Virus record (IMG/VR): IMGVR_UViG_2531839662_000021
Coordinates: 1-14,097 of that record
From: a virus
Lineage: Duplodnaviria > Heunggongvirae > Uroviricota > Caudoviricetes
Reading direction: 5' to 3' (one strand)
DNA length: 14,097 nt
Made by a program: the position numbers and the translations under genes. The notes below the pieces were generated by a model that was given only the letters and a program-made list of their open reading frames with translations, was not told the origin of the DNA and did no database searches. Shown one piece after another: positions 1 to 14,097 of this stretch; position 1 is the first letter of the stretch; every line of letters begins with the position of its first letter.

Positions 1-348
1 TACATCATGGCGACGGATTCGTGGGGGTACTCCCGCGACGTGCGCTGTGAAGTGCTGGCCGGAAAGGTGATCAAACGCCTGCTGTCGTCGGATGCCACCG
101 GAGGCATGGGGGCTGAACGCATGGCTGCTGATGTGCGGGCAGACAACATTTACTCCGCCAGCCTCGACGGGCTGGGTGTCACCATGTGGGCGGTGACGTG
201 GGAGCAGGAATTTCGGCTGGATGAAGAGATTGATCTCGCCGCGCTCCCGGACTTCCTGCGCCTCGGGGCAACGCTGCGTAGCGGTGAACACACTGAAATT
301 AACGACGTGATCCATGTACGGGGTGACGATGGAACAGAAACTGATTAA
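1..348 (+). CDS. 5'-truncated CDS, C-terminal part of a Mu gp37 (K)-like tail completion/terminator protein
   Basis: ORF is in frame from base 1 (no start inside the window) and stops at 346-348. Position immediately upstream of the small gp38-like ORF and the sheath gene matches Mu late-operon synteny. Function inferred from synteny only. Confidence 0.5.
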   Translation, partial: YIMATDSWGYSRDVRCEVLAGKVIKRLLSSDATGGMGAERMAADVRADNIYSASLDGLGVTMWAVTWEQEFRLDEEIDLAALPDFLRLGATLRSGEHTEINDVIHVRGDDGTETD

Positions 349-514
349 GCCAGCGCGGGAAAACGTCCGTGTCCGTAAACCGGATGGCGCGCATTTATCC
401 CCGGAAGGGGAACGTCTCGACGTCTGCGCTTACTGGCTGCGCCGTGAAGCCGAGGGAGATGTGGAAATAACCGCGCTTCCGAAAAATAGCAACAAAAACA
501 GAGGGAAAAAATAA
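329..514 (+). CDS. small conserved tail-region protein, Mu gp38-like
   Basis: 61-aa ORF (MEQKLIKPAREN...). ATG at 329 is preceded by a GGGGTGA Shine-Dalgarno-like motif; the ORF track's start at 314 has no good RBS. Its stop overlaps the sheath ATG (TAATG at 512-516). Small gene between K-like and L-like genes as in Mu. Confidence 0.5.
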   Translation: MEQKLIKPARENVRVRKPDGAHLSPEGERLDVCAYWLRREAEGDVEITALPKNSNKNRGKK

Positions 515-1990
515 TGTCGCTGGGTTCAATTCCTGATGATATCCGCGTCCCGCTTGTCTGGATCGATATCGACAATTCACAGGTGCTGGATGGTGCATCC
601 GCGCAAAGCCGAAAAATTCTGGTCATGGGCCATGCGGTATCGTCCGGCAGCGCAGACGCCCTGTCACTGACCCGCATCACCAGTGACAGCCAGGCAGACC
701 AGCTTTATGGCAAAGGGTCGATGCTGGCTGAAATGCTCAAAATGCTGCGTCGTGCCAACACGTACACGGAAACCTGGGCTATGCCGGTTGCCGCGCCTGA
801 AGGCGCTGCCGCAAAAGCCACGCTGACCGTGCTGGGTACAGCGACTGAAGCCGGAACGGTGGCACTGCTGATTAACGGTGTGTCCGTTCAGGTGAGCGTG
901 AGCGCCGGGGCTACGAAGGAAAACATTGCAAAAGCCATTGCTGATGCGGTGACGAAAAAGCCTGCCACGCAGGTGGCCGCTGCGGTGAAGGATGATGCCA
1001 CGGATACCGTGGAGCTGACCGTGAACTGGCACGGCGTCACCGGCAACGGTGCCGACGTTCGCCTGAACTACTACACCGGTGAAGCCTTCCCGGCTGGTGT
1101 GAAGGTGACCGCTACTGCGTTTACCGGCGGCACCGGGACACCGGAAATGGCGGATGCCGTTGCGGCCATCGGCCCGGAGTGGTTTACCGATATCATCGCC
1201 CCGTTCACCGACACGAAAAGCCTGAACACCCTGCGTGATGAACTGCTGAACCGCTGGGGGCCGCTCAAAATGATGGAGGCGCAGCTGTGGACGGCGTTTC
1301 GTGGCACGCACGGCGAGACAGGCACGTTTGGTGAAACCCGCAATGACTGGCTGATTAGCTGTATTGGCACCAACCTGTCACCGCACCCGGCGTGGATGTG
1401 GGCCGCGTCATACGGCGCAACGGCAGCGTATCACCTTTGCCATTGACCCGGCGCGTCCGCTTCAGACGCTGGTCCTGACCGGCATTCTGCCGCCTGCGCG
1501 TAATGTTCGCTGGGATATGCCGGAACGTAACCTGCTGCTGCATGACGGCATTGCCACACACATGGTGGACGCCGGGGATAACGTCTGCATCGAGCGTGAA
1601 ATCACCATGTACCGGGTTAATCAGTACGGTGATGCGGATGTGTCGTACCTTGATGTGCAGTCACCCGCCACGCTGGGCCGTATCCGTTACATCATCAAAA
1701 ATCGTTTCACGAACCGTTATCCGCGCCATAAGCTGGCGGACGATGACGTGCTGGACTCACTGGATGCCGGTCAGCCGGTGATGACGCCGAAGCTGTGCAC
1801 CGCAGAGCTGCTGGATATCTGCCAGACCGAACTTATTCCTGCGGGCCTTGTGGAGAACTTCAGCGATTACAAGGACACGCTTCAGGTGACACGCGACAGC
1901 AGCGATAAAAACCGTCTGAACTTTATCTGCCACCCGAATCTGGTGAACCAGCTGCGTGTGCTGGCAGGCCTGATTCAGTTCAAACTTTAA
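514..1990 (+). pseudogene. contractile tail sheath protein (Mu gpL-like), reading frame disrupted by an apparent +1 frameshift near 1420-1440
   Basis: ORF 514..1446 (310 aa, starts MSLGSIPDDIRVPLVWIDID, GAGGGA RBS upstream) continues as protein-like sequence in the next frame (ITFAIDPARPLQTLVLTG... to stop at 1988-1990). Combined span is 1477 nt, one base more than a multiple of three; an intact gene would be about 491 aa, the typical sheath size. The frame-2 ORF upstream of about 1425 is Arg-rich junk. Confidence 0.75.
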
Positions 1991-1999
1991 GGGGGCCGC

Positions 2000-2356
2000 A
2001 TGGCAAAAATTCTTGGCATGGCGACCATTCGCGTGAATGGCCGCGAAATTAAAACCGAGGGGAAATCCACGCTGAATCCGGGCGGCTTCAGTCGCACCCA
2101 GCATATGGGCGGCGGCAAGGTCTGGGGCATCTCCAGCAAGATGGCCTCGCCGTCCATCAAGGTGACCATTGCGGCGGCAGCGGATATGGACGTGATTGAA
2201 ATCAGCAGCTGGGAAGACGTCACGGTGATGTTCTACGGCGACAATGGCCTGAACTACATGATGACGGGTTCCGCCACGGATAACCCGGCGGAGCTGGACG
2301 AGGATTCCGGCACCATCAGTGCCAACTTTATCGGTGAAAAATGCGTGAAGGTGTGA
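2000..2356 (+). CDS. tail tube protein (Mu gpM-like)
   Basis: 118-aa ORF directly after the sheath gene with AAGGGGG RBS 6 nt upstream of ATG; size and position typical of myovirus tube proteins. Confidence 0.75.
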   Translation: MAKILGMATIRVNGREIKTEGKSTLNPGGFSRTQHMGGGKVWGISSKMASPSIKVTIAAAADMDVIEISSWEDVTVMFYGDNGLNYMMTGSATDNPAELDEDSGTISANFIGEKCVKV

Positions 2357-2357
2357 C

Positions 2358-2753
2358 ATGGCTGAAATGACATTTGAACTGAAACACGGGCTTCTGACCG
2401 GCAAAGGCACGGCAGATGAAACCCTGCATAAAACCGTGAAACTGCGCGAACTGACCGCCAGCGACGTGATTGATGCACAACTGGCCGCAGAACGCGTCGT
2501 CATGGGCGGGAACGGAAAGGCGGTGGCCTACTGCTCGGAAGTGCTGATGGGGCTGGAGATGATGCGCCGTCAGGTTGCGGCCATCGGCAGCATTCCCGGC
2601 CCGCTGGACATGAAACAGCTGCGAATGCTCCACCCGGCAGACCTTGAGCTTATCAGCACGAAAGCCGCTGCGCTGGATGACATGCTTGAGGAGGTGGCAA
2701 CGCGGGGGCGACCTGATGCCGCTGGCGGCGGCACTGATGAACCTGCTGGTTAA
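2358..2753 (+). CDS. tail assembly chaperone (Mu gp41-like), short in-frame product
   Basis: 131-aa ORF between tube and tape measure genes, the conserved position for tail assembly chaperones; ATG lies 1 nt after the tube stop. Confidence 0.7.
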   Translation: MAEMTFELKHGLLTGKGTADETLHKTVKLRELTASDVIDAQLAAERVVMGGNGKAVAYCSEVLMGLEMMRRQVAAIGSIPGPLDMKQLRMLHPADLELISTKAAALDDMLEEVATRGRPDAAGGGTDEPAG

Positions 2754-2853
2754 CCTGTCCCAGCGATTCAGCATTCAGTACCTGGAACAGCTGCCCCTGC
2801 GGCAGCTGTTCCGCCTGATAAAGCAACTGGAGAAACAGCATGGCAACAGGTAA
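2358..2853 (+). CDS. tail assembly chaperone frameshift fusion product (G-GT-like), putative -2/+1 shift at G-run 2704-2708
   Basis: A second frame is open from 2644 to the stop at 2854-2856 and overlaps the 3' end of the chaperone ORF; CGGGGGCGA at 2703-2711 is the candidate slip site. The extension ends 14 nt inside the tape measure gene start. Fusion would be about 165 aa. Confidence 0.45.
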
Positions 2854-4696
2854 CCGTCTCAGCACGGAAATCATGATCAACCTTGCCGGGAACCTGACCG
2901 CCAAAGCCCGGCAGTACGGCGCAAATATGTCGCAGTTCGCCCGGAACCATCAGAAGGCCATGCGCCTTGTCAAAGCCACAACGGAGGCCGCAGGACGCGG
3001 CCTTGATACGCTGGGCAACCGCTACACGGCAATGATAGCCGGGCTTGGCAGTAGCCTAACCATCAAACAGGTTGCCGATTTTGATGCGCAGATGCGCCGG
3101 ATGGGTACGGATGCCCAGTTAACCACTGAACAGGTAAAGACGCTTCACGACAAAATCAGGGATGTATCGAACCAGAAAGATATTCGTATTGATGCCTCTG
3201 CGCTTGGTCAGGGGGCCAGCGAACTTCTGGGGAAAACCGGTGATTATCAGTATGTGGTGGACAACCTCCGCAACATGGGGTTGATGATGCAGGCGTTCGG
3301 TGTTGACGGACAGGTTGCAGCCGGGCTGATGGCGCAGTTCTGGGAAAAAAACGTCCGGGGCGCTGATGCGGTCAGTAACATGATGGACAGGCTGTATTCG
3401 CAGTTCGCAGTGGGGTCTGTCAGCGTTGCCGATGTTGCCCGCGCAGCTCCGAAACTGTTTTCCATCATTCAGGATCAGGGACCGGAAGCCATTGCCCAGA
3501 TGGGGGCATTTGCTCAGGTGTTCGCCAAAAACAAAGGCAGCATTGATGAGACGGTAACCAGTATTCAGGCCATGTATGCCTCCCTGTCGGACAAAAAGAA
3601 CATCGAGTTCCTGAAAAAAAACGGCGTTGATGTTTTTGTCAAAGGCACAAAAGACATCAAAAAGCCCTATGAACTGATGATGGAAATCCTTAAACGGGCC
3701 AAATACGACCCGCTGAAACTTCAGGATGTGTTTGATCAGACCGGGATGCAGGGGATTAAGGCGCTGCTTAACCCTGAAAACCGGCAACTGATGGAACAAA
3801 TGATTTACGGCACGATTGATCTGGGTTCCACGCAAAAGGCCGCACAGACCAATGCCGAAGGCTTTAATGCTGCAATGCAATCACTGAATAACGAATGGCA
3901 ACGTTTTGCTGAAGGGCAACTGGCAAAGCCCGTTCAGGACCTGGCGGATGCGCTCAACAGCGTGGACCAGGATACCGTCCAGAACTGGTTGCAGGTGGGT
4001 AAATATATAGCGATTGCGCTGGGTGGCATTATCGCCATCAGAAAGACGTATCAGTTCGGTAAAACCATCCACGACATCATGAATCCCAAAGGGAAAGGCA
4101 AAGGGATTCCCGGTGGCATTACGGATGTTTTCGGCTCCGGTGTGATGCCGGTTTATGTGGTTAATATGGGCAGTGGCGGGATGAATGGTAATACCGGCGG
4201 TCTGCCGGATACACCGGATTCATCGCGCAATCCCCGTAACCCACGCAATCCTCGGGGTCCGGGTAACCGTGGAGGAAAGGCAGGTAAAGGCGCTGGCATC
4301 ATTACCGGTGCTCTGGAGTTTTACGATTTTCTGACCACGCAATACGCCCTGCCGGGTGAGGTTGACAGCCTTACAAAATCCGTTGCCGGTGATGCCAGCG
4401 CCAGCCCGTGGGAGCGCGAGTTCGCGCAACAGAGTCAGGACAATCAGAAAGCGCTCGAGTCCGTCTGGCGTAAGGTAACGGACTGGTTCAACTCGCTGGG
4501 TGACAAGAACATTGCCGACCCGCGACCGTGGGCAGGTATGCAACCCACACAGAATTATCCTTTCCTTCCGCAGCAATTGCAGGGGGAGATCCGTGTGGTG
4601 GTGGAAGGTGACGCCCGCGTGAAAAGCGTCAGAGTGGATCAACCCGGCGTCAGACTCAGTGCGCAGGCTGGCGTCACCAGCGTGGAGCAAGGGTAA
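2840..4696 (+). CDS. tail tape measure protein (Mu gpN-like)
   Basis: 618-aa ORF following the chaperone pair, GGAG RBS upstream; hydrophobic segment (WLQVGKYIAIALGGIIAI) and Gly-rich low-complexity C-terminal region typical of tape measure proteins. Confidence 0.8.
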   Translation: MATGNRLSTEIMINLAGNLTAKARQYGANMSQFARNHQKAMRLVKATTEAAGRGLDTLGNRYTAMIAGLGSSLTIKQVADFDAQMRRMGTDAQLTTEQVKTLHDKIRDVSNQKDIRIDASALGQGASELLGKTGDYQYVVDNLRNMGLMMQAFGVDGQVAAGLMAQFWEKNVRGADAVSNMMDRLYSQFAVGSVSVADVARAAPKLFSIIQDQGPEAIAQMGAFAQVFAKNKGSIDETVTSIQAMYASLSDKKNIEFLKKNGVDVFVKGTKDIKKPYELMMEILKRAKYDPLKLQDVFDQTGMQGIKALLNPENRQLMEQMIYGTIDLGSTQKAAQTNAEGFNAAMQSLNNEWQRFAEGQLAKPVQDLADALNSVDQDTVQNWLQVGKYIAIALGGIIAIRKTYQFGKTIHDIMNPKGKGKGIPGGITDVFGSGVMPVYVVNMGSGGMNGNTGGLPDTPDSSRNPRNPRNPRGPGNRGGKAGKGAGIITGALEFYDFLTTQYALPGEVDSLTKSVAGDASASPWEREFAQQSQDNQKALESVWRKVTDWFNSLGDKNIADPRPWAGMQPTQNYPFLPQQLQGEIRVVVEGDARVKSVRVDQPGVRLSAQAGVTSVEQG

Positions 4697-5970
4697 TGAC
4701 AACAGGCAAAGGCAAATGGGACGGACTGCGCGACGCCTCGTTTCGCGGTGTCCCCTTCTTTCTGGTGGATACGGAAGGCACCGGTGGCCGCAGGGCTATT
4801 CCCCGCGCGTATCCCCGGCGTGAAACCGCCTGGACGGATGATAACGGGGCCGTTCCCGGTCAACAGCAGATTAACGCAAAGCTGCCAGGTAAAAACTTCC
4901 AGGATGATTTAAACGCCCTTTTAGACGCGCTCAATACCCCCGGCCCCGGCGAGCTTATCCACCCGTGGTTCGGGATACAGACCGTACAGGTTGGCAAGGT
5001 CACCCATCGCCTCAGCACGGAGGAAGACGGCATTGCGTATGTCACTTTTGAAGTGTTTGAGGCAGGCGAGCGCCTGTTCCCGTCTGCGGCGGATAACACG
5101 CAGCAGGAAGTACTGACGGGTATTGATGCGGTAAAAGCGGCCATTGACGATGGCGACTGGTTCGGCGCACTCGACGGGCTGGGTGAGATGGCCGACAGCT
5201 TTCTGGCTGATATGGAAAACCTTGTGGCTAACCTGCCCACGTTACCGGCAGCACTGAATCAGTGGATGGACAGGCTGAACCATTTTAAGGAGATGGCCGG
5301 AACCATCATTGCCACACCGGGGCGTCTGGTCAGTGAGCTGTCCTCGTTCATCGACGGCGTGGTTGATCTGGTGACGGAACCACCCGAAGCACTGGCGGTT
5401 TACACGACATTACGCAACCAGTGGGCCGGAGAACGCGCCCGACAGGTTGCCACCGGCGCACTGCCGGAAGATATCACCGTGAAGCCAGGCAGCGTGGCAG
5501 ACGGCGAAATTGGCTTTGCTATCGGGCTGTCACCGGATTATCAGCCGGTATCTGTCAGTCTGCAGAAGAACATTGACGACTTCCGCCAGGTGGTTGTGCT
5601 GGAAACCCTGCTGGGACAGGCAAATGCCGTGGCCTCGATGACGTTCGATACCAGTGATGCGGCCTTATCTGCCGGTGACACGCTGGCGGCTGAACTGCAT
5701 GAGCAGGCGGTGGCAGCGGTGGAAAATAACCAGCGGGCATTGTGGCGAACGCTGCGCGATTTACGGCAGGCCGTGATTACGGATGCCCGCGAGCGTGCCG
5801 CCCGTCTGCCGGAAACCCGGCAGGTGACGCTGACCACAACCACATCTGCCGCATTGCTGGCATGGCGCGAGCATGGGGATACAAGCCGACGGGATGAAAT
5901 CGTGCAGCGTAACCGCCTGCGCCATCCGTCATTCATCCTGCCAACGCAACCAGTGGAGATTACCGACTGA
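4696..5970 (+). CDS. Mu gp43 (P)-like 'DNA circulation' baseplate/tail protein
   Basis: 424-aa ORF; N-terminus (KWDGLRDASFRGVPFFLVDTEG) resembles the DNA-circulation N-terminal family found after the tape measure gene in Mu-like phages; start overlaps the upstream stop (TAATG). Confidence 0.7.
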   Translation: MTTGKGKWDGLRDASFRGVPFFLVDTEGTGGRRAIPRAYPRRETAWTDDNGAVPGQQQINAKLPGKNFQDDLNALLDALNTPGPGELIHPWFGIQTVQVGKVTHRLSTEEDGIAYVTFEVFEAGERLFPSAADNTQQEVLTGIDAVKAAIDDGDWFGALDGLGEMADSFLADMENLVANLPTLPAALNQWMDRLNHFKEMAGTIIATPGRLVSELSSFIDGVVDLVTEPPEALAVYTTLRNQWAGERARQVATGALPEDITVKPGSVADGEIGFAIGLSPDYQPVSVSLQKNIDDFRQVVVLETLLGQANAVASMTFDTSDAALSAGDTLAAELHEQAVAAVENNQRALWRTLRDLRQAVITDARERAARLPETRQVTLTTTTSAALLAWREHGDTSRRDEIVQRNRLRHPSFILPTQPVEITD

Positions 5971-7040
5971 TGGAATCCGTGATTCTTACCGTTGACGGCA
6001 AATTGTGGGAAGGCTGGACGGAAATGTCCGTCAGCCGTTCCCTGAAGGCGATTGCCGGTGAGTTTGATCTCAGTGTGACAACCCGCTGGTCAGCGGCGGC
6101 ACCGCGCGTGATACGTGAGGGGCAACCCTGCACGGTCAGGCTGGGTGCGGATACCGTGCTGACAGGGTATATCGATGATTTTATCCCCAGCTATGACGCA
6201 GATAACGTGGAGATTCGCGTCATGGGGCGCGACAAAACCGGCGACCTGGTGGACTGCTCTGTGGTGCATTCATCCGGGAAATGGAAAGGCGTGCGGCTGG
6301 AACAGGTAGCGGCTGATGTCTGCCGCCCGTTCGGGATAGCCGTCATCACGGAAACCCCGACCGGGGAGGCGTTTGCGTCCGTTGTTCTGGAACAGGGTGA
6401 AACGGGCTTTGAACTGCTCGACCGGCTGGCAAAACAGCGCGGCGTTCTGCTGACGTCTGACGGCGCAGGTAACCTGATTATCACCCGCGCCTCTTCCGTT
6501 CGCGCGGGTGTGTCACTGGTGCTGGGGAAAAATATCCTCGCCGCCCGTGGGCGCTTCAGCTGGCGGGAGCGTAACAGCCAGTACATCATCAAGGGCACCA
6601 CCAGTGCCGGTGGCAAACTGTGGGACAGCCAGCCTGCCTCGATGGTGGGTGGTCGCCAGTACATCACCGAAGACCCGGAAATTAACCGTTACCGCCCGCG
6701 CATTCTGGTCAATGAAGACAGCCTGACCGTGGGCGGGGCCAGCATTCGCGGGGAATGGTACAAAGCCCGGATGCTGGGGGAATCCCGCACGACGGAAATC
6801 ACGGTGGCAGGCTGGCGCGAACAGGGCGACAGCGGCCCGCTGTGGCAGACCAATCGCCTTGTCGATATCGACGACAGCATTCAGAACCTGAAAACCACCT
6901 GGCTGATATCCGGGGTGACCTGGACGGATGGCGCACAGGGGCGGATGACGGTTCTGGCGCTGGTTCCGCCTGAATCACTGGATATGCCGGAAATGAAAGC
7001 GAAGACGAAGAAAACAAAGGCGGTGGCCACATGGGATTAA
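5970..7040 (+). CDS. baseplate hub protein (Mu gp44/Q-like, P2 gpD-like)
   Basis: 356-aa ORF in the conserved position; start overlaps the upstream stop (TGATG). Confidence 0.7.
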   Translation: MESVILTVDGKLWEGWTEMSVSRSLKAIAGEFDLSVTTRWSAAAPRVIREGQPCTVRLGADTVLTGYIDDFIPSYDADNVEIRVMGRDKTGDLVDCSVVHSSGKWKGVRLEQVAADVCRPFGIAVITETPTGEAFASVVLEQGETGFELLDRLAKQRGVLLTSDGAGNLIITRASSVRAGVSLVLGKNILAARGRFSWRERNSQYIIKGTTSAGGKLWDSQPASMVGGRQYITEDPEINRYRPRILVNEDSLTVGGASIRGEWYKARMLGESRTTEITVAGWREQGDSGPLWQTNRLVDIDDSIQNLKTTWLISGVTWTDGAQGRMTVLALVPPESLDMPEMKAKTKKTKAVATWD

Positions 7041-7567
7041 ACGCAATTGCCCGCCGTCTGCGGCTGCTGGTTGACCGTGCCGTTGTGCGCATGGTGTCTG
7101 ACAGTCTGGAGCGGCAGAACCTGCAAATCCAGACGCTGGCTGATGCCACCGACGACGACGTGGAACGCTTCCAGAACTACGGGTTTACTTCCGTTCCGCC
7201 GGAAGGTTCTGAAGCCATCGTGCTGGCCGTGGGCGGACGGCGTGACGGGCTGGTTGCCATCGCGGTGGAGGACAAGCGATGTCGCCCGAAAGGCCTGTCC
7301 CCCGGTGATGTCCGGCTGTATCACCAGGACGGTAAATCGCATATCACGTTAAAGAAAGGCGGAATTATTGAAATCACAGGAGAACAATTAAACGTTTCAG
7401 GGAAAACGGTAAATCTCACCGCCGACGAATTGCTGAATATTATCGGTAAACAAATGAAATTCGTCGGTCCCTGTGAATTTACTGCAGATGCCACAATCAA
7501 CGGTAAATCTTTCATCAAACACATTCATAAGGACGGCGACAATGAGAAGACATCACCGCCCATATGA
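7031..7567 (+). CDS. baseplate central spike / assembly protein V (Mu gp45-like)
   Basis: 178-aa ORF overlapping the hub gene by 10 nt; size and position match gpV-like spike proteins. Confidence 0.7.
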   Translation: MGLNAIARRLRLLVDRAVVRMVSDSLERQNLQIQTLADATDDDVERFQNYGFTSVPPEGSEAIVLAVGGRRDGLVAIAVEDKRCRPKGLSPGDVRLYHQDGKSHITLKKGGIIEITGEQLNVSGKTVNLTADELLNIIGKQMKFVGPCEFTADATINGKSFIKHIHKDGDNEKTSPPI

Positions 7568-8016
7568 CGACCGGAATCCGCTGGAATAATACTCTCTCAC
7601 GGGGTGACATCACCGTCACCCATAACGGCCTCTCACTGGATGAGGGGCTGGTCACTCAGGTTCTTATCTGCCTTTTCACTGATGCCCGTGCTGATGACGA
7701 TGATGTCATTCCAGATGGTTCCGGCGACCCGCGCGGCTGGCCGGGCGACACGTACAGCGATTTTTCGTGGGGTTCCCGCCTGTGGCTGCTTGAGCGCGAA
7801 AAACTGACGGAAGATGTCCGCCTGCGCGTGGAGGATTACGCGCGACTGTCCATGCAACCGCTGCTGCGGGCCGGTTACGCCCGTAACGCCACCGTCACGG
7901 CCAGAATCATCGTCCCTGACCGTATTGCCTTTCAGGTGGTGTTAACCCGCCCGGACAAAACCACGCTCACAATCGAAATCACCCGCCGATGGGAGGCCAC
8001 CATTAATGCCGTATGA
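7564..8016 (+). CDS. baseplate wedge protein, Mu gp46 (W)-like / T4 gp25-like
   Basis: 150-aa ORF with ATGA start/stop overlap with the upstream gene; Asp-rich motif (DARADDDDVIPDGSGDPRGW) characteristic of the GP46 family. Confidence 0.7.
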   Translation: MTTGIRWNNTLSRGDITVTHNGLSLDEGLVTQVLICLFTDARADDDDVIPDGSGDPRGWPGDTYSDFSWGSRLWLLEREKLTEDVRLRVEDYARLSMQPLLRAGYARNATVTARIIVPDRIAFQVVLTRPDKTTLTIEITRRWEATINAV

Positions 8017-9082
8017 AATCCCCTCGCTGGGCAAACTGATTGCCGACGGCGAAAAAGATATTGCGTATGAACTCGGTCTGCAAAAGCTGCCGCCTGTCAG
8101 TGTTGAGCAGGCGCTGAACGTGTCGTTCAGCAGTCAGGTCCGGGATTTATACGACCATCAGAGCTGGATTAAGGACCAGATAATCCCGTCCACCGCATCT
8201 GATGATGAAACCATTATCAAAACAGCAACGTATGAAGGGGTTATCCGCAAGCAGGCAACCTTTGCCAGCGGGCCGGTGACCTTCACCAGTCAGTCCCCCA
8301 TTCCGGCAGAAACCCGGATGCAGTCCGACACGAATCAGGTGTATCAGGTACTCACATCCGGCGAGGTACAGGACGGCGAGGTCACCGTCATCGTGCAGGC
8401 TGAAGAAGCCGGTGTGGCGGGCAATCTTGCTGCCGGTGCCGTGCTCACTCTGTTGTCCCCGCTACCCGGAACGGGCAGCACCGGCGCGGTGACTGAAAGT
8501 GGCATCACCGGTGGCGCAGACATCGAATCCATCGCAGAGCTGCTGGACCGTCTGCTGTATGTGCGCCGCAATCCCCCGGTGGGCGGTGCACTGCATGATT
8601 ACGTCATCTGGGCGCGTGAAGTGCCGGGTGTCAGCCGCGCGTGGGCATGGGATGCGTGGCACGGCCCCGGCACGGTCGGGCTGGCATGGCTTTATGATGA
8701 CCGTGAAGACATTATCCCCACACGGGACGACCTGAAGACAATGGAGCAGTATCTGTTCTGCCACAAACACCCTGCCACCGGCGTGATGGTGGGCAAACCG
8801 GGCGGCATCGAGGTCTGGCCGGTGCAGGTCAGGCTGAAGAAGCTCGACCTGTCCATCCGTCTGACACCGGACAGCCAGGCGAACAGGAACGCCGTCCGGG
8901 CAAACCTGACCGCATTGCAGAAAACGCTGGCCCCCGGTCAGATGCTGCCGGTGTCCTCGCTGCGCACGGCCATCGGTATGACGTCCGGTATCACGGATTA
9001 CTTCCTCAACATCGGGGAGGACACCACCAGTGATGTGGATGAGCTTATCACCATCGGGGAGGTGACATGGCTCACAGCGTGA
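8006..9082 (+). CDS. baseplate J-like protein (Mu gp47-like)
   Basis: 358-aa ORF overlapping the upstream gene by 11 nt; size and synteny match baseplate J family proteins. Confidence 0.7.
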   Translation: MPYEIPSLGKLIADGEKDIAYELGLQKLPPVSVEQALNVSFSSQVRDLYDHQSWIKDQIIPSTASDDETIIKTATYEGVIRKQATFASGPVTFTSQSPIPAETRMQSDTNQVYQVLTSGEVQDGEVTVIVQAEEAGVAGNLAAGAVLTLLSPLPGTGSTGAVTESGITGGADIESIAELLDRLLYVRRNPPVGGALHDYVIWAREVPGVSRAWAWDAWHGPGTVGLAWLYDDREDIIPTRDDLKTMEQYLFCHKHPATGVMVGKPGGIEVWPVQVRLKKLDLSIRLTPDSQANRNAVRANLTALQKTLAPGQMLPVSSLRTAIGMTSGITDYFLNIGEDTTSDVDELITIGEVTWLTA

Positions 9083-9651
9083 CGGAATGGCTGACCGCAC
9101 TGCAACAGGTCATGCCACGGGGTAAGGCATGGCCGCGTGATAACGACGCGGATTTAAACCGTTTTTTAAGGGCGCTTGCAGAGCGTTTAACCCGCGTTGA
9201 ATACGACGCCTCGCGTCTGCATGTGGAGATGCGACCGGAAACCACGCTCCAGTTGCTGCCGGAGTGGGAGCAATATCTGGCGCTGCCGGAATGCGGAATT
9301 GCCGCCACCACAACGGAAGCCCGCCGCCGGGCCGTGGTGGAGAAATACCGCCGCAAAGGCGGGCTGGCCACCTGGCAGATTGAAGCCGCTGCGGCGGCGC
9401 TGGGATTCACTATTAAGGTGACGGCCGTTCTGCCGCACCACTGCCTGCGTGACTGCATGTACCCGCTACATCCGGCGCGGTATCGCTGGCTGCTGAAAGT
9501 GGAAGTCCCGGACAAAGATGCCGGGCGGTTTACCTGTATTGATGACGTCATGACGCCATTAATCAGCGAACGGACCCGCGAGCTGGAATGCCTGCTGAAG
9601 CATTACCGGCTGGCGGGCACGGAATATGAATATTATTACACCGGAGAATAA
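9067..9651 (+). CDS. tail/baseplate protein Mu gp48-like (P2 gpI-like)
   Basis: 194-aa ORF overlapping the upstream gene by 16 nt, immediately preceding the tail fibre gene as in Mu. Confidence 0.65.
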   Translation: MAHSVTEWLTALQQVMPRGKAWPRDNDADLNRFLRALAERLTRVEYDASRLHVEMRPETTLQLLPEWEQYLALPECGIAATTTEARRRAVVEKYRRKGGLATWQIEAAAAALGFTIKVTAVLPHHCLRDCMYPLHPARYRWLLKVEVPDKDAGRFTCIDDVMTPLISERTRELECLLKHYRLAGTEYEYYYTGE

Positions 9652-9654
9652 TTT

Positions 9655-10542
9655 ATGTTTCATGTGGATAATCCGACGGGTGTGCCAGTGATGCCACCTG
9701 TCGCGGCTGAATTAAGCAAAACAACGCTTTATTTCACCGAAGGCGGGAACGGTATTCCGCCCACTTATCCGGGGCCGGACTGGTTTAATATTATTCAGTC
9801 TGAATTACTGAAAATTCTCGAAGAAGCCGGAATAACACCGGATAAAGCAGATACCGGTCAGATAATGGCAGCGCTGAAAAAACTGTTTATTACGAACAGT
9901 GGTTCAGCTGGTGCCATTGCCGGATTAACCGGTCAGAATAATACGTTCCCGTACTTTACGGGCGAAGACACAATGGCATTAACGCCGCTCAGTGCTTTTG
10001 TGCGCGGTATTCTCGGGAAAAACACAGCCGGTGAAATTATCGACGCGCTTTTATTACGTGACACGGTAAATAAAGCTAATAGTGCTGTACCGAATACCCG
10101 CAGGGTCAACGGCATGGCTCTGTCTTCGGATATCACCATCAGCAACATCAGCGGCAACGCCGGAACGGCAACCCGACTTCAGACGGCCCGCAGGATTAAC
10201 AATGTGCTGTTTGATGGCAGCCGCGATATCACGATTTCTGCGGGAATGTCACAAACTGAAGGTGACAACCGTTACCAGCAAAAAAACACGGCGTCAAAAG
10301 CCGGTAATGGCTGGTTTAAGGACACGTCCACCGGGGTGATTATTCAGTGGGGGTATCTCGGCAATGCCAGTGCCGGGCTGACGTTTCCGATATCATTTCC
10401 GTCAGCATGTACCAGCATCACTATTACCAACGCATACACCCGTGCTGATTACTCTATTTCCCTGAAATCGTTATCAGCAGCAGGTGCGACATTCAACAGC
10501 GAGAATAACGGCGTTATGTACTGGACAGCGATAGGGTATTAA
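9655..10542 (+). CDS. tail fibre protein (Mu S-like), module 1
   Basis: 295-aa ORF with GGAGAA RBS; directly follows the baseplate genes and is followed by an overlapping tail fibre assembly gene; more AT-rich than the upstream structural genes. Confidence 0.75.
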   Translation: MFHVDNPTGVPVMPPVAAELSKTTLYFTEGGNGIPPTYPGPDWFNIIQSELLKILEEAGITPDKADTGQIMAALKKLFITNSGSAGAIAGLTGQNNTFPYFTGEDTMALTPLSAFVRGILGKNTAGEIIDALLLRDTVNKANSAVPNTRRVNGMALSSDITISNISGNAGTATRLQTARRINNVLFDGSRDITISAGMSQTEGDNRYQQKNTASKAGNGWFKDTSTGVIIQWGYLGNASAGLTFPISFPSACTSITITNAYTRADYSISLKSLSAAGATFNSENNGVMYWTAIGY

Positions 10543-10982
10543 TGATGACTATTTATTTCAGCCCATCAACAAACGGTTTTTATCATTCTGGCCTTCAGGG
10601 TGATTATGAAAATGCGGGAACGTGGCCGAATGATTTACAGGAAATCACGGATGAAGAATATCAGAGACTGTTACAGGGCCAGACTGACGGTTTTATTATT
10701 GTATCTGGCGAAAACGGATATCCGGTATTAAAAGAACCCGTAATTAACTGGCAGCAGAAAGCGGAAACGCAACGCCAGCACCTGCTGGCTGAAGCAAGGG
10801 AAATCACCTCCGACTGGAAAACCGAGCTGGAGCTGGGCACCATCAGCGACGATGATAAAGCCCGTCTTACGCAGTGGATGGCATATATCAAAGCGGTAAA
10901 GGCACTGGATTTAAGCACCGTTACTGACGAAGACTCCTTTTATTCCATCAACTGGCCGGAGCGTCCCGATGCCGCAGCTTAA
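10542..10982 (+). CDS. tail fibre assembly chaperone (Mu U-like / Tfa), module 1
   Basis: 146-aa ORF with TAATG overlap to the fibre gene; size and position typical of Tfa/U chaperones. Confidence 0.7.
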   Translation: MMTIYFSPSTNGFYHSGLQGDYENAGTWPNDLQEITDEEYQRLLQGQTDGFIIVSGENGYPVLKEPVINWQQKAETQRQHLLAEAREITSDWKTELELGTISDDDKARLTQWMAYIKAVKALDLSTVTDEDSFYSINWPERPDAAA

Positions 10983-12576
10983 AGGTGTGATTAAAACGCC
11001 CACGGGAGAACCGCTGGGCGGCGCAACCATTACATTGACCTCCCTGCACAACCGCGCAGGGATTCTGAAAAGTGTTTTCAGCCATGTCACCACACAGAAC
11101 GGGGAATATGACTTCCCCGTTCTGCCGGGTGTGTACAGCGTTCGCCTGACACAAAGCACACAGCGCCTTTCAGAAATCGGTGTCATCCGCGTTTATGAAG
11201 ATTCAGCGGACGGTTCGTTGAATGATTTTCTGGGTGCAACCGATATTGACCTGCGCCCGGAAGCCCTGAAGAAATTCGAAGAGCTGGCGCAACAGGCGCA
11301 GCAAAGCGCAGAAGCCGCAGCGGAAAGCGAGCGACAGGCCGGGCAACATGTCGCTGATGCGCAGAAGATAAAGAAAGACTGTCAGACGCTGGCGGATAAC
11401 GTACAGCAGAACGCAGAAGCCGTAGCGGCCAGCAAACAGCACGTTGAACAGCTGGCCTCAGAAGTTGAGCTGAACGCCGGGCAGGTGCAGCAGGGCGTGC
11501 AGAATGTTACTGATGCGGTAAAAAAGGCGCAGCAGGCAGCAAAGGATTCTGCTGACAGTGCCACAGATTCGAAAAACAGTGCTGACAATGCGGCACTGAG
11601 CGAACAGAACGCACAAAAACACGCGCAGAAAGCTGAACAACACGAGCAGCAGACTAAACAATATGCGCAGGATGCAGCGACCGCCGCAGAATCAGCAGAG
11701 AACGCCAAAGGCGAAATTGACGAAATTCTGGAAGGTGGCTATCTCAAGATAAAAAACAACTTTCAGGAAATTGTTGATGCTGGCCCGTCAGCACTGGCTC
11801 AGGCCCAATGGAATTTACAGATTTCCGGGGTGAAAAATAAACAGGTAATTGCCACCCCTTATACATGGCCATCCAGAACTGAGTATGAACAAAGGGTGCA
11901 TCTGCCACTCGCCGGGGCTTACGGATTTGGCTACACATTTGAAGACCAAAGCCAGGGGCGAATAAATTTTAATGAGGGCTATACGGCGTCGTGGTGGTCA
12001 CAGTGGGCGAAACCTGGTCGTTATTACGTCAGCGCCAGTGATAAAGAATACCTCGCACCTGAAGGAGAAAGGTGGGGGATTGTTGATTTGCTGTGGCTTA
12101 ATGGCAGCGGATATAACGATGCTTCGAAGGTTCTGAAGATACTGGCTTTTTACGACTCAGACGGGCACTTACACATAGGCAAGCGCGTTGGTCAGAGCGA
12201 CTGGTCAATAAGCTGGCGCAAGCTGGCATCGCTCTCTGATGTCAGGGCCATGCTGTATTCATATATTTATAATAATTACAACAGAGAATGGCGAGACCCG
12301 GAACTGGGAGGTTTAATTCTGGCGTCATACCAGGGAACCGCAGACGGCGACACAAATATAAAAGTATCCCGTGGTCAGACTTATCCCGGCTCGCGACTCG
12401 CTCCTGTGGCGATAGAATGCCAGTTCACCCCATCCGGCACGTATGCTGCAACACCGCGATTCTACATTACCGGCTGCAAGAGCAAATCACTCCCCGGAAC
12501 TTATATTTCATTGTCTGGCGCGCCAACAACATACAGCGACCAGGCATTTGTTGCGCTATTCATGAGGATTGTATGA
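10969..12576 (+). CDS. second tail fibre protein with distinct N-terminal domain, long Ala/Gln-rich coiled-coil stalk and C-terminal receptor-binding region
   Basis: 535-aa ORF; N-terminus (MPQLKGVIKTPTGEPLGGATITLTS...) resembles prophage tail-fibre N-terminal domains; residues about 100-250 are strongly Ala/Gln/Glu/Lys-rich; followed by its own Tfa gene. Confidence 0.75.
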   Translation: MPQLKGVIKTPTGEPLGGATITLTSLHNRAGILKSVFSHVTTQNGEYDFPVLPGVYSVRLTQSTQRLSEIGVIRVYEDSADGSLNDFLGATDIDLRPEALKKFEELAQQAQQSAEAAAESERQAGQHVADAQKIKKDCQTLADNVQQNAEAVAASKQHVEQLASEVELNAGQVQQGVQNVTDAVKKAQQAAKDSADSATDSKNSADNAALSEQNAQKHAQKAEQHEQQTKQYAQDAATAAESAENAKGEIDEILEGGYLKIKNNFQEIVDAGPSALAQAQWNLQISGVKNKQVIATPYTWPSRTEYEQRVHLPLAGAYGFGYTFEDQSQGRINFNEGYTASWWSQWAKPGRYYVSASDKEYLAPEGERWGIVDLLWLNGSGYNDASKVLKILAFYDSDGHLHIGKRVGQSDWSISWRKLASLSDVRAMLYSYIYNNYNREWRDPELGGLILASYQGTADGDTNIKVSRGQTYPGSRLAPVAIECQFTPSGTYAATPRFYITGCKSKSLPGTYISLSGAPTTYSDQAFVALFMRIV

Positions 12577-13142
12577 TGCAGATTAAAGAAATCACCAGCC
12601 CCCGTTATACCGAATCCGGTGCGATTGACTGCGACGTTCTGTTTGAGGAAATGGAAGCCCCTGTTCCCTACACTGCCACGCCGGACGATACAGCGAAAAC
12701 CGGTCAGCAAATCTGGCAGGAACTGCAAAGCGGAAAATGGGGTGAAATAACCCCGTTTGCCGTCACGCCGGAACTTATCGCAGCGGCGAAGGATGCCAAA
12801 AAACGGGAGATTGAGGCATGGCGCACAGAACAGGAGGCGCAGCCATTCACGTTCGAATGGAACGGTCGTACCTGGAATGCTGGTCCCGATTCGATGGCTC
12901 GCATTGCGCCCGTGGCAATGGCCGCAAAAGTGGCAGGTGCACGGGCAACGCTGGGGTGGGGGGATGCAGCAAACAGCCTTGTCACCATGACAATGGCGCA
13001 GCTTCAGGAGCTGGCAGCAACAATGGCGCAGGCGCAAACCGAGCGCAATACTGTGATTTATCGTCGTCAGCGTGAGATGAAAGAGCAGCTTTCCCTGTTG
13101 ACCACACTGAACGAAATAAGAGCATTCACACCCGGCGATTAA
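12573..13142 (+). CDS. tail fibre assembly chaperone (Tfa), module 2
   Basis: 189-aa ORF starting at ATGATG with GAGG RBS and ATGA overlap with the fibre stop. The longer ORF from 12288 in the track is a junk-like upstream extension. Confidence 0.7.
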   Translation: MMQIKEITSPRYTESGAIDCDVLFEEMEAPVPYTATPDDTAKTGQQIWQELQSGKWGEITPFAVTPELIAAAKDAKKREIEAWRTEQEAQPFTFEWNGRTWNAGPDSMARIAPVAMAAKVAGARATLGWGDAANSLVTMTMAQLQELAATMAQAQTERNTVIYRRQREMKEQLSLLTTLNEIRAFTPGD

Positions 13143-13265
13143 ATAATCATTTTGTATAGTTTATGACGATCGATAACATCATATCGATCGTCGGTTTGCA
13201 TCATATGTGATTAAATACCCCCAGCCCTCCGGGCGGTCATGTCTGGTTATTACACAGGGGGAATC
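13143..13265 (+). promoter_or_regulatory. mom-operon control region (Pmom-like): perfect 11-bp inverted repeat carrying two GATC Dam sites, G+C-rich element, com RBS
   Basis: GACGATCGATA (13165-13175) and TATCGATCGTC (13182-13192) are exact reverse complements separated by 6 bp; GATC at 13168-13171 and 13186-13189. Downstream ATACCCCCAGCCCTCCGGGCGG and AGGGGG RBS precede the com ATG. In Mu, Pmom is controlled by Dam methylation of upstream GATC sites and by the C activator. Confidence 0.55.
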
Positions 13266-13451
13266 ATGGACTCTGTTCGCTGTAAAAACTGCAATAAATT
13301 ACTGTTTAAAGGAGGTTTTAAGCATATAGAAATTAAATGCCCTCGCTGTAAACGTTACATTGTCATATCGAATGCCAAAGAGCATCCCACGGAGCTGTAT
13401 TGTGGGAAAAGAGAAGAAATCACGCATTCTGACAAAACCCTGCGTTATTGA
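13266..13451 (+). CDS. com: Com, zinc-finger translational activator of mom
   Basis: 61-aa product [33 protein letters not shown]...HSDKTLRY with CxxC...CxxC zinc-finger spacing, closely resembling Mu Com as I remember it; AGGGGG RBS 6 nt upstream of ATG; 3' end overlaps mom. Confidence 0.85.
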
Positions 13452-14097
13452 GTATGAAGGTCGTATTGTCGGCTATGGTTCAAAGGAGCTACGTGTTGAA
13501 ACCATATCCTGCTGGCTGGCCCGCACAATCATTCAGACAAAACACTATTCCCGCCGTTTTGTGAATAACTCCTACCTGCATCTTGGCGTATTCAGCGGAC
13601 GTGATCTGGTTGGCGTTCTTCAGTGGGGATATGCCCTTAACCCCAACTCAGGGCGTCGGGTCGTGCTTGAAACGGATAACCGGGGCTATATGGAACTGAA
13701 CCGCATGTGGCTACACGACGACATGCCCCGCAACTCTGAATCACGGGCTATCAGCTACGCGCTGAAAGTTATCAGGTTACTGTATCCGTCAGTTGAGTGG
13801 GTTCAGTCTTTTGCAGACGAACGCTGCGGACGTGCTGGCGTGGTATATCAGGCGTCGAATTTTGATTTTATTGGTAGCCATGAAAGCACGTTCTACGAGC
13901 TGGACGGCGAGTGGTATCACGAGATAGCGATGAACGCGATTAAGCGCGGAGGGCAACGAGGCGAGTATTTGCGGGCTAATAAGGAGCGGGCCGTGGTACA
14001 CAAATTTAATCAGTATCGCTACATCAGGTTCCTGAACAAGCGCGCAAAAAAGCGCCTAAACACCAAGCTATTCAGGATTCAGCCATACCCGAAGTGA
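13402..14097 (+). CDS. mom: Mom DNA modification protein (adenine modification, anti-restriction)
   Basis: ORF in a different frame overlapping the com 3' end and running to the window end (stop 14095-14097). GTG at 13402 is preceded by GGAG (13391-13394) and gives 231 aa, the length I recall for Mu Mom. An in-frame ATG at 13372 (241 aa) is an alternative start. Confidence 0.8.

Follow-up and report, generated by a model that had tools for sequence, protein, structure and literature searches.

A two-GATC palindrome upstream of com-mom in a Mu-type prophage as the probable core of an OxyR/Dam operator

What is a perfect inverted repeat with a GATC site in each arm doing between a tail-fibre gene and com in a Mu-type prophage? 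The DNA that we analysed, here called the window, is a stretch of 14,097 nucleotides (positions 1 to 14,097 of the IMG/VR virus record IMGVR_UViG_2531839662_000021). An earlier reading of its letters, which we refer to as the original prediction, took the repeat to be an alternative, symmetric methylation-sensitive operator, possibly serving a different dimeric repressor. We describe the anatomy of the element, its conservation and its likeness to two validated operators. We consider it likely that the palindrome forms the middle of an OxyR operator that is sensitive to Dam methylation and controls the com-mom genes of a Mu-type prophage.

The palindrome and its genomic setting

The element at 13165-13192 is a perfect 11-bp inverted repeat, in which GACGATCGATA (13165-13175) and TATCGATCGTC (13182-13192) flank the spacer ACATCA (13176-13181). 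It ends at 11 bp because the next outward pair is T13164/G13193. GATC1 starts at 13168 and GATC2 at 13186, a spacing of 18 bp, and the window contains two copies of CGATCG only, both of them inside the palindrome. The sequence thus confirms what had been reported of the arms, their 6-bp spacer and the GATC and CGATCG that each arm holds. The palindrome is real and not a product of chance; when the whole window was shuffled 200 times with its dinucleotides preserved, only 8 shuffles had, at any place, a perfect inverted repeat whose arms reach 11 bp or more around a spacer of 12 nt or less. GATC is depleted across the window (15 observed in 1-14097, about 53 expected from base composition) and absent from a 7.1-kb stretch (6067-13167). 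With no GATC between 6066 and 13168, the pair 18 bp apart stands out.

The palindrome begins 23 nt past the stop codon of the upstream gene and lies 74 bp upstream of com (Table 1). Its placement upstream of com in the original prediction is correct, since the upstream stop codon (13140-13142) precedes it, the com ATG at 13266 follows it, and both com and mom are confirmed by PHROG matches. For com we favour the start at this ATG, which has GGGGG ahead of it, because the RefSeq annotation and an alignment to Mu Com both point to it; a second in-frame ATG, at 13239, lengthens the mechanical com open reading frame by nine codons (13239-13265).

Table 1. Features of the com-mom region, in window coordinates
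Feature	Positions	Strand	Sequence or content	Basis
DUF4376 tail-fibre gene	ends 13142			RefSeq annotation of the identical UMNF18 locus
Half-site A, promoter-distal	13156-13170	+	ATAGtttatgaCGAT; 8/10 to consensus; GATC1 (13168-13171) at right end	
Palindrome	13165-13192	no strand	inner ends of half-sites A and B and 16-bp linker; GATC1, GATC2	
Half-site B, promoter-proximal	13187-13201	+	ATCGtcggtttGCAT; 5/10 to consensus; GATC2 at left end	
Candidate Mu C-type late activator box	13215-13222	+	ATACCCCC	Mu register, motif enrichment
com	13266-13451	+	translational activator of mom	UMNF18 RefSeq; PHROG 13819 'gpCom', E = 4e-43
mom	13372-14097	+	DNA modification gene, proposed regulated target	UMNF18 RefSeq; PHROG 1384, E = 2e-83

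An identical copy of the window is present as a prophage in E. coli UMNF18. PHROG scans place a contractile-tail module first, followed by com and mom, both of which are intact and share about 89% nucleotide identity with com-mom of Mu, D108 and SfMu. In UMNF18, sequence 87% identical to the Mu right end (attR) is found within 115 bp after mom; it finishes ...GCCGCTTCA and adjoins the host gene dhaM. Because of this Mu-like right end 3' of mom, we assign the prophage to the Mu-type transposable phages. A megablast search with the tail genes (window 1-9000) against a phage collection gave no match. Many E. coli genomes match the window only from about 13140, at the stop codon of the upstream gene, and have other genes upstream. 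Since the similarity starts there while the upstream genes differ, the intergenic region belongs to the com-mom module; its upstream neighbours are DUF4376, a tail fibre or, in Mu, gin. Judged from these matches, the intergenic region together with com-mom is a mosaic module that has been joined to different tail-fibre genes or, in Mu, to gin.

OxyR-type half-sites and the operators of Mu mom and agn43

The published consensus ATAGnTnnnAnCTAT describes a single OxyR dimer site; of its 10 specified bases, functional half-sites match 7-10 (PMC2909390, PMC4856963). Half-site A is the sole 8/10 match to this consensus among 14,083 window positions, and it shares its register with ATAGaaaacgaCGAT of Mu and ATAGAATAAAACGAT of agn43. 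Half-site B starts 31 bp after A, as in Mu; its score of 5/10 is below the published functional range of 7-10/10 (PMC4856963) and is the weakest among all lineages examined. Together A and B score 13/20, the single best two-half-site score in the window at 31-bp spacing, to be read with the poor discrimination of the consensus alone, as random window positions reach 12/20 several times.

Half-sites A and B are mirrored about 13178.5, which is both their midpoint and the centre of the palindrome. The palindrome therefore consists of their inner ends (CGAT, ATCG) plus the linker. GATC1 overlaps the CGAT of A and GATC2 the ATCG of B, a placement common to Mu and agn43; with two GATCs, the window has one fewer than Mu mom and agn43, which have three each. 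The inner CGATA...TATCG is strongly conserved, though the published OxyR consensus does not require linker bases. A 22-bp register, in which four grooves are contiguous, was tried and rejected; it scores 12/20 in the window and in Mu, and five other window positions are equal or better. We prefer the 31-bp register because agn43 (32 bp) and other lineages support 31 bp, and because the 22-bp scores are matched elsewhere.

In a blastn search of 12900-14097 against phages, Mu, D108 and SfMu align only from 13276 on, the intergenic DNA being too far diverged for this search outside the elements held in common, and homology of the intergenic region to Mu therefore had to be found by register. An ungapped match between window and Mu (offset 11786) spans 67 bp, with ATAG at one end and the C box at the other, and is identical at 39 of 67 positions; no other place in the window fits that Mu segment as well (z ~6.4). 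The aligned rows are ATAGaaaacgaCGATCGAatcaattaaaTCGATCGgtaatacaGATCgattatgccccaATAACCAC for Mu and ATAGtttatgaCGATCGAtaacatcataTCGATCGtcggtttgCATCatatgtgattaaATACCCCC for the window. This comparison with the region upstream of Mu Pmom, which the original prediction had itself suggested, uncovers an ungapped frame common to both, ATAG-N7-CGATCGA-N10-TCGATCG, followed 29 bp after GATC2 by an ATAMCC box, ATACCCCC in the window at exactly the distance of ATAACCAC in Mu. The statement that the three GATCs of Mu are not a palindrome is right in its count and wrong in the rest: Mu carries the dyad aCGATCGA-N10-TCGATCGg, which holds GATC1 and GATC2 at the same 18-bp spacing as in the window and has ATAG-N7 upstream. 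The OxyR (MomR) site of Mu and D108, with three Dam sites upstream of Pmom, stands in the same position upstream of com-mom as the window element. The exact register of the OxyR footprint in Mu is one that we take, as an assumption, from a secondary citation.

Window and Mu differ in several respects. The dyad is perfect over 11 bp in the window and over 7 bp in Mu, the window dyad gaining two base pairs on the inside and one on the outside. Mu has three GATCs and the window two, with CATC at 13199-13202 where Mu has GATC3. Half-site B matches the consensus at 5/10 in the window and 7/10 in Mu, the upstream neighbour is the DUF4376 tail-fibre gene rather than gin, and the C-like box is separated from the com ATG by 51 bp, 11 bp fewer than the 62 bp of Mu. 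Over the operator, 29 of 48 positions are identical. PMC7549136, citing Sun & Hattman 1996, states that OxyR is kept from binding once Dam has methylated the GATCs upstream of Mu mom.

The second operator is that of agn43 (flu) in E. coli K-12, whose regulatory region we read from the genome record. Like the window, it contains a pair of 15-bp half-sites that carry GATCs at their ends, together with a closely similar palindrome, here the inverted repeat AACGATCAATA-N7-TATCGATCGTT, which pairs at 10 of 11 positions and is nearly the window sequence. Unlike the window, it contains three GATCs, at spacings of 19 and 13 bp, and its half-sites, ATAGAATAAAACGAT and ATCGTTTATATCGAT, lie 32 bp apart and match the consensus at 8/10 each. 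Operator identity is 33/49 between window and agn43, and 37/49 between Mu and agn43. The agn43 operator begins at the annotated start of a leader RNA (isrC), whereas the window operator, from its inferred position, would lie upstream of the promoter. The heritable ON/OFF switching of agn43 is not known for mom (PMC2909390).

OxyR binding is abolished by methylated GATCs in agn43 and gtr, and one half-site of gtr is flanked by a pair of GATCs with a spacing of 13 bp (PMC2909390, PMC4856963). The gtr and opvAB switches of Salmonella and P22 resemble the window in having GATCs at the ends of OxyR half-sites, and in gtr and opvAB methylation blocks OxyR. They contain three or four half-sites, four GATCs and alternative OxyR positions that give rise to ON and OFF states, compared with one A+B pair and two GATCs in the window. 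Changing GATC to CATC, which leaves the OxyR consensus intact, has been used experimentally in gtr and opvAB (PMC2909390, PMC4856963).

The regulatory regions of agn43 (L075, 300-376) and Mu (L001, 1364-1439) can be aligned beyond the OxyR operator, up to a common AATAACC, and agn43 sits in the cryptic prophage CP4-44. A common ancestry of the agn43 and Mu mom regulatory regions is possible.

Conservation across related loci

Loci of the window type were picked by a downstream anchor, independently of the palindrome core, which yielded 25 loci in 8 haplotypes. The core CGATCGATA-N6-TATCGATCG is intact in all 25. Operator positions that vary among these loci are 13160, 13165-13166, 13176-13177, 13181, 13193-13194 and 13198, and this variation is confined to positions that the OxyR consensus leaves unspecified or that are already mismatched to it. 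Within half-site A, consensus positions 5, 10 and 11 alone vary, the change at position 10 (G to A) being towards the consensus. Downstream of the operator, 31 of 64 columns vary.

A wider family was gathered by Mom homology from viral contigs and GTDB genomes. At the Enterobacterales com-mom loci, GATC spacings of 18 and 13 bp are found in the Mu type and in L050, L051 and L057, and spacings of 19 and 13 bp in L054 and L065. Spacings of 31 and 13 bp occur in L049 and in Edwardsiella (L060), because there GATC1 stands at the left end of A and not at the right. A spacing of 18 bp alone characterizes the window type, L052 and L058. Most Enterobacterales lineages have a half-site A, placed 31 bp upstream of B, that matches the consensus at 6-9/10, against 2-5/10 in L054, L058 and L065; half-site B scores 5-9/10 across them. 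Each of the other lineages with the 18-bp spacing alone has a better B than the window: L052, with GATCGATA-N6-TATCGATC and without a third GATC, at 8/10, and L058, with two GATCs only, at 9/10 (ATCGTttgtatCTAT). In the same Mom-homology set, no GATC cluster was found at the com-mom loci of Desulfovibrio, Pseudomonas and similar genera. The mom genes of L052 and L054 (1201-1935 in each) look inactivated, by an in-frame stop at codon 10 in the former and a frameshift after about 95 codons in the latter.

We also scanned viral contigs with a 14-base pattern (ATAG-N7-CGATC-N14-GATCG), which gave at least 120 matches; most of these are chance matches, and the count says nothing about frequency. 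Among the pattern matches listed, mom is present in 7 of 120. Very good operators of the same layout are found, among those listed, in viral contigs without mom (L151 at about 2502 on the minus strand, L144 at about 1987 on the minus strand, and L127 at 96 on the plus strand). The operator ATAGATAAAAACGATCGTAAATCAATTATCGATCGTTTTTATCGATC in a viral contig without mom scores 9/10 at A and 8/10 at B, with GATC spacings of 18 and 13 bp, and is about 60 bp upstream of a 255-residue membrane-protein open reading frame. The similar site of L127 precedes a 225-residue open reading frame whose N-terminus resembles an EAL domain, by eye only. Such sites may control other prophage cargo genes that are switched by OxyR and Dam.

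A proposed Dam-sensitive operator and its alternatives

From the resemblance to Mu mom and agn43, we hypothesize that the element corresponds to the regulatory region upstream of Mu Pmom and is built like the agn43 operator, a reading that we hold to be probable. We infer OxyR binding and methylation sensitivity at the com-mom locus, as well as the position of its promoter, from sequence. OxyR would bind as a tetramer to a pair of dimer sites, each 15 bp long, with 31 bp from the start of one to the start of the other. The last bases of site A (13156-13170) are CGAT, with a C just beyond them that completes GATC1, and site B (13187-13201) begins with ATCG, with a G just ahead that completes GATC2; A and B being mirrored, their inner ends and the linker would read as an inverted repeat. 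Full methylation of GATC1 and GATC2 by host Dam would keep OxyR off, and with OxyR kept off a C-type late activator, likely at the 13215 box, would switch on com-mom. On unmethylated DNA (perhaps also on hemimethylated DNA, as in Mu) the OxyR tetramer on A and B would repress com-mom.

The candidate activator box resembles ATAACCCC of the Mu lys, I and P promoter oligonucleotides (PMC4461284). ATAMCCCC occurs five times in the window, against 0.66 expected, at 4934-4941, 12747-12754 and 13215-13222 on the plus strand and at 8237-8244 and 10349-10356 on the minus strand. The copy at 4934 (ATACCCCCggccccggcgagcttatcc) resembles the Mu P late promoter (ATAACCCCggacggcggctt...tatcc), a context like that of Mu P_P. 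This Mu-like context of ATAMCCCC suggests a C-type late activator with Mu-like specificity; the C homologue is encoded outside the window. A Mu C-dependent late promoter has a C box of the ATAACCCC type upstream of a weak -10 element, and no good -35. The com-mom promoter is probably driven by a C-type late activator at the candidate box; a sigma-70 promoter scan of 12900-13500 called no sigma-70-like promoter, and our candidates for the -10 element, 13237-13242 or about 13243-13250, are guesses. Between the C-like box and com there is also a mini-hairpin, GCCC-tcc-GGGC (13224-13234), whose stem is invariant in the relatives and whose loop reads TCC, TCA or TCT; the terminator scan calls it terminator-like on the minus strand.

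Could a regulator other than OxyR act here? The palindrome would then be a symmetric operator for a different dimeric methylation-sensitive regulator, encoded by host or phage, that has replaced OxyR in this lineage. The arms are perfect over 11 bp, which is more symmetry than the OxyR consensus requires, half-site B matches at only 5/10, GATC3 is lost, and CGATA/TATCG is invariant in the 25 loci despite lying in the supposed linker. However, the near-identical palindrome of agn43 and the shorter one of Mu mom both belong to OxyR targets according to the literature. Moreover, the conserved ATAG-N7-CGAT, which reaches just outside the palindrome, is the best OxyR half-site of the window and would be left unexplained by recognition of the palindrome only, and our analysis identified no candidate regulator. 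We regard this explanation as unlikely, and keep a different regulator or a different register alive at a low probability because of the 5/10 score of B, the missing GATC3 and the unexplained invariance of CGATA/TATCG. Just as doubtful is a related proposal, that the operator has been remodelled to a minimal, fully symmetric two-GATC switch, with a weak half-site B and with GATC3 turned by nature into CATC as in the gtr and opvAB experiments, where OxyR in a palindrome-centred register, or another symmetric regulator, could make mom bistable. If this were true, lysogens would express mom in a phase-variable manner like agn43, and not by simple late-gene gating.

Less probable again is that the element is a decaying relic, in which the third GATC and a good half-site B have disappeared along with any regulatory function. 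The weak half-site B, the CATC in place of GATC3 and the broken mom of some relatives (the in-frame stop of L052, the frameshift of L054) agree with decay, but the core is invariant in 25 of 25 loci and 8 haplotypes where about half of the other intergenic columns vary (31 of 64 downstream). In addition, com and mom are intact in the window, and the two GATCs persist where that site is otherwise strongly depleted.

The least probable explanation is that the repeat acts in RNA, as a hairpin at which transcription coming through from the upstream tail-fibre operon ends or is attenuated: the plus strand does fold into a 12-bp stem (-22.6 kcal/mol for a 73-nt stretch, z = -4.3 against shuffles) so soon after the upstream stop codon, but the tail after the stem, GGTTTGCATC, has no T-run, which makes a terminator role unlikely, the terminator scan makes no call at the palindrome, the element stays with com-mom where the upstream gene differs, the homologous Mu dyad straddles the gin stop codon, and left-arm changes of GA to GG or AA are uncompensated in the right arm. 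The case that had been foreseen against an operator, that of a terminator hairpin and nothing else, thus has its stem without the T-run or the terminator call. An Rfam scan matched no family and gave nothing relevant.

The OxyR/Dam reading also bears on the operator that was originally proposed. A methylation-sensitive operator for com-mom is very likely, given the likeness to Mu and agn43; that it is an alternative one, or made for a different dimeric repressor, is not supported, and no new repressor is needed because the region aligns without gaps to that upstream of Mu mom and resembles agn43. The element appears to be a two-GATC, perfectly symmetric version of the OxyR/Dam operator known from Mu mom and agn43, and implies no new mechanism. 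Wherever two OxyR half-sites mirror each other and hold GATCs at their inner ends, as in agn43, a palindrome of this kind would generally result. The value of this assignment is mainly one of annotation, in that the OxyR/Dam control region of Mu mom would be conserved as a movable com-mom module across Mu-like prophages of Enterobacterales. Natural two-GATC variants exist in the window type, L052 and L058, and lend themselves to asking what number of Dam sites is required and whether the promoter-proximal GATC plays a role.

Other perfect inverted repeats, with 12-bp arms, are present elsewhere in the window. The one at 2784-2812 (GGAACAGCTGCC / cctgc / GGCAGCTGTTCC) is inside a short open reading frame (2644-2853), just upstream of the tape-measure open reading frame (2840-4696), and may be linked to tail-chaperone frameshifting or to a terminator. 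The one at 11095-11124 (CAGAACGGGGAA / tatgac / TTCCCCGTTCTG) is inside the tail-fibre open reading frame 10969-12576.
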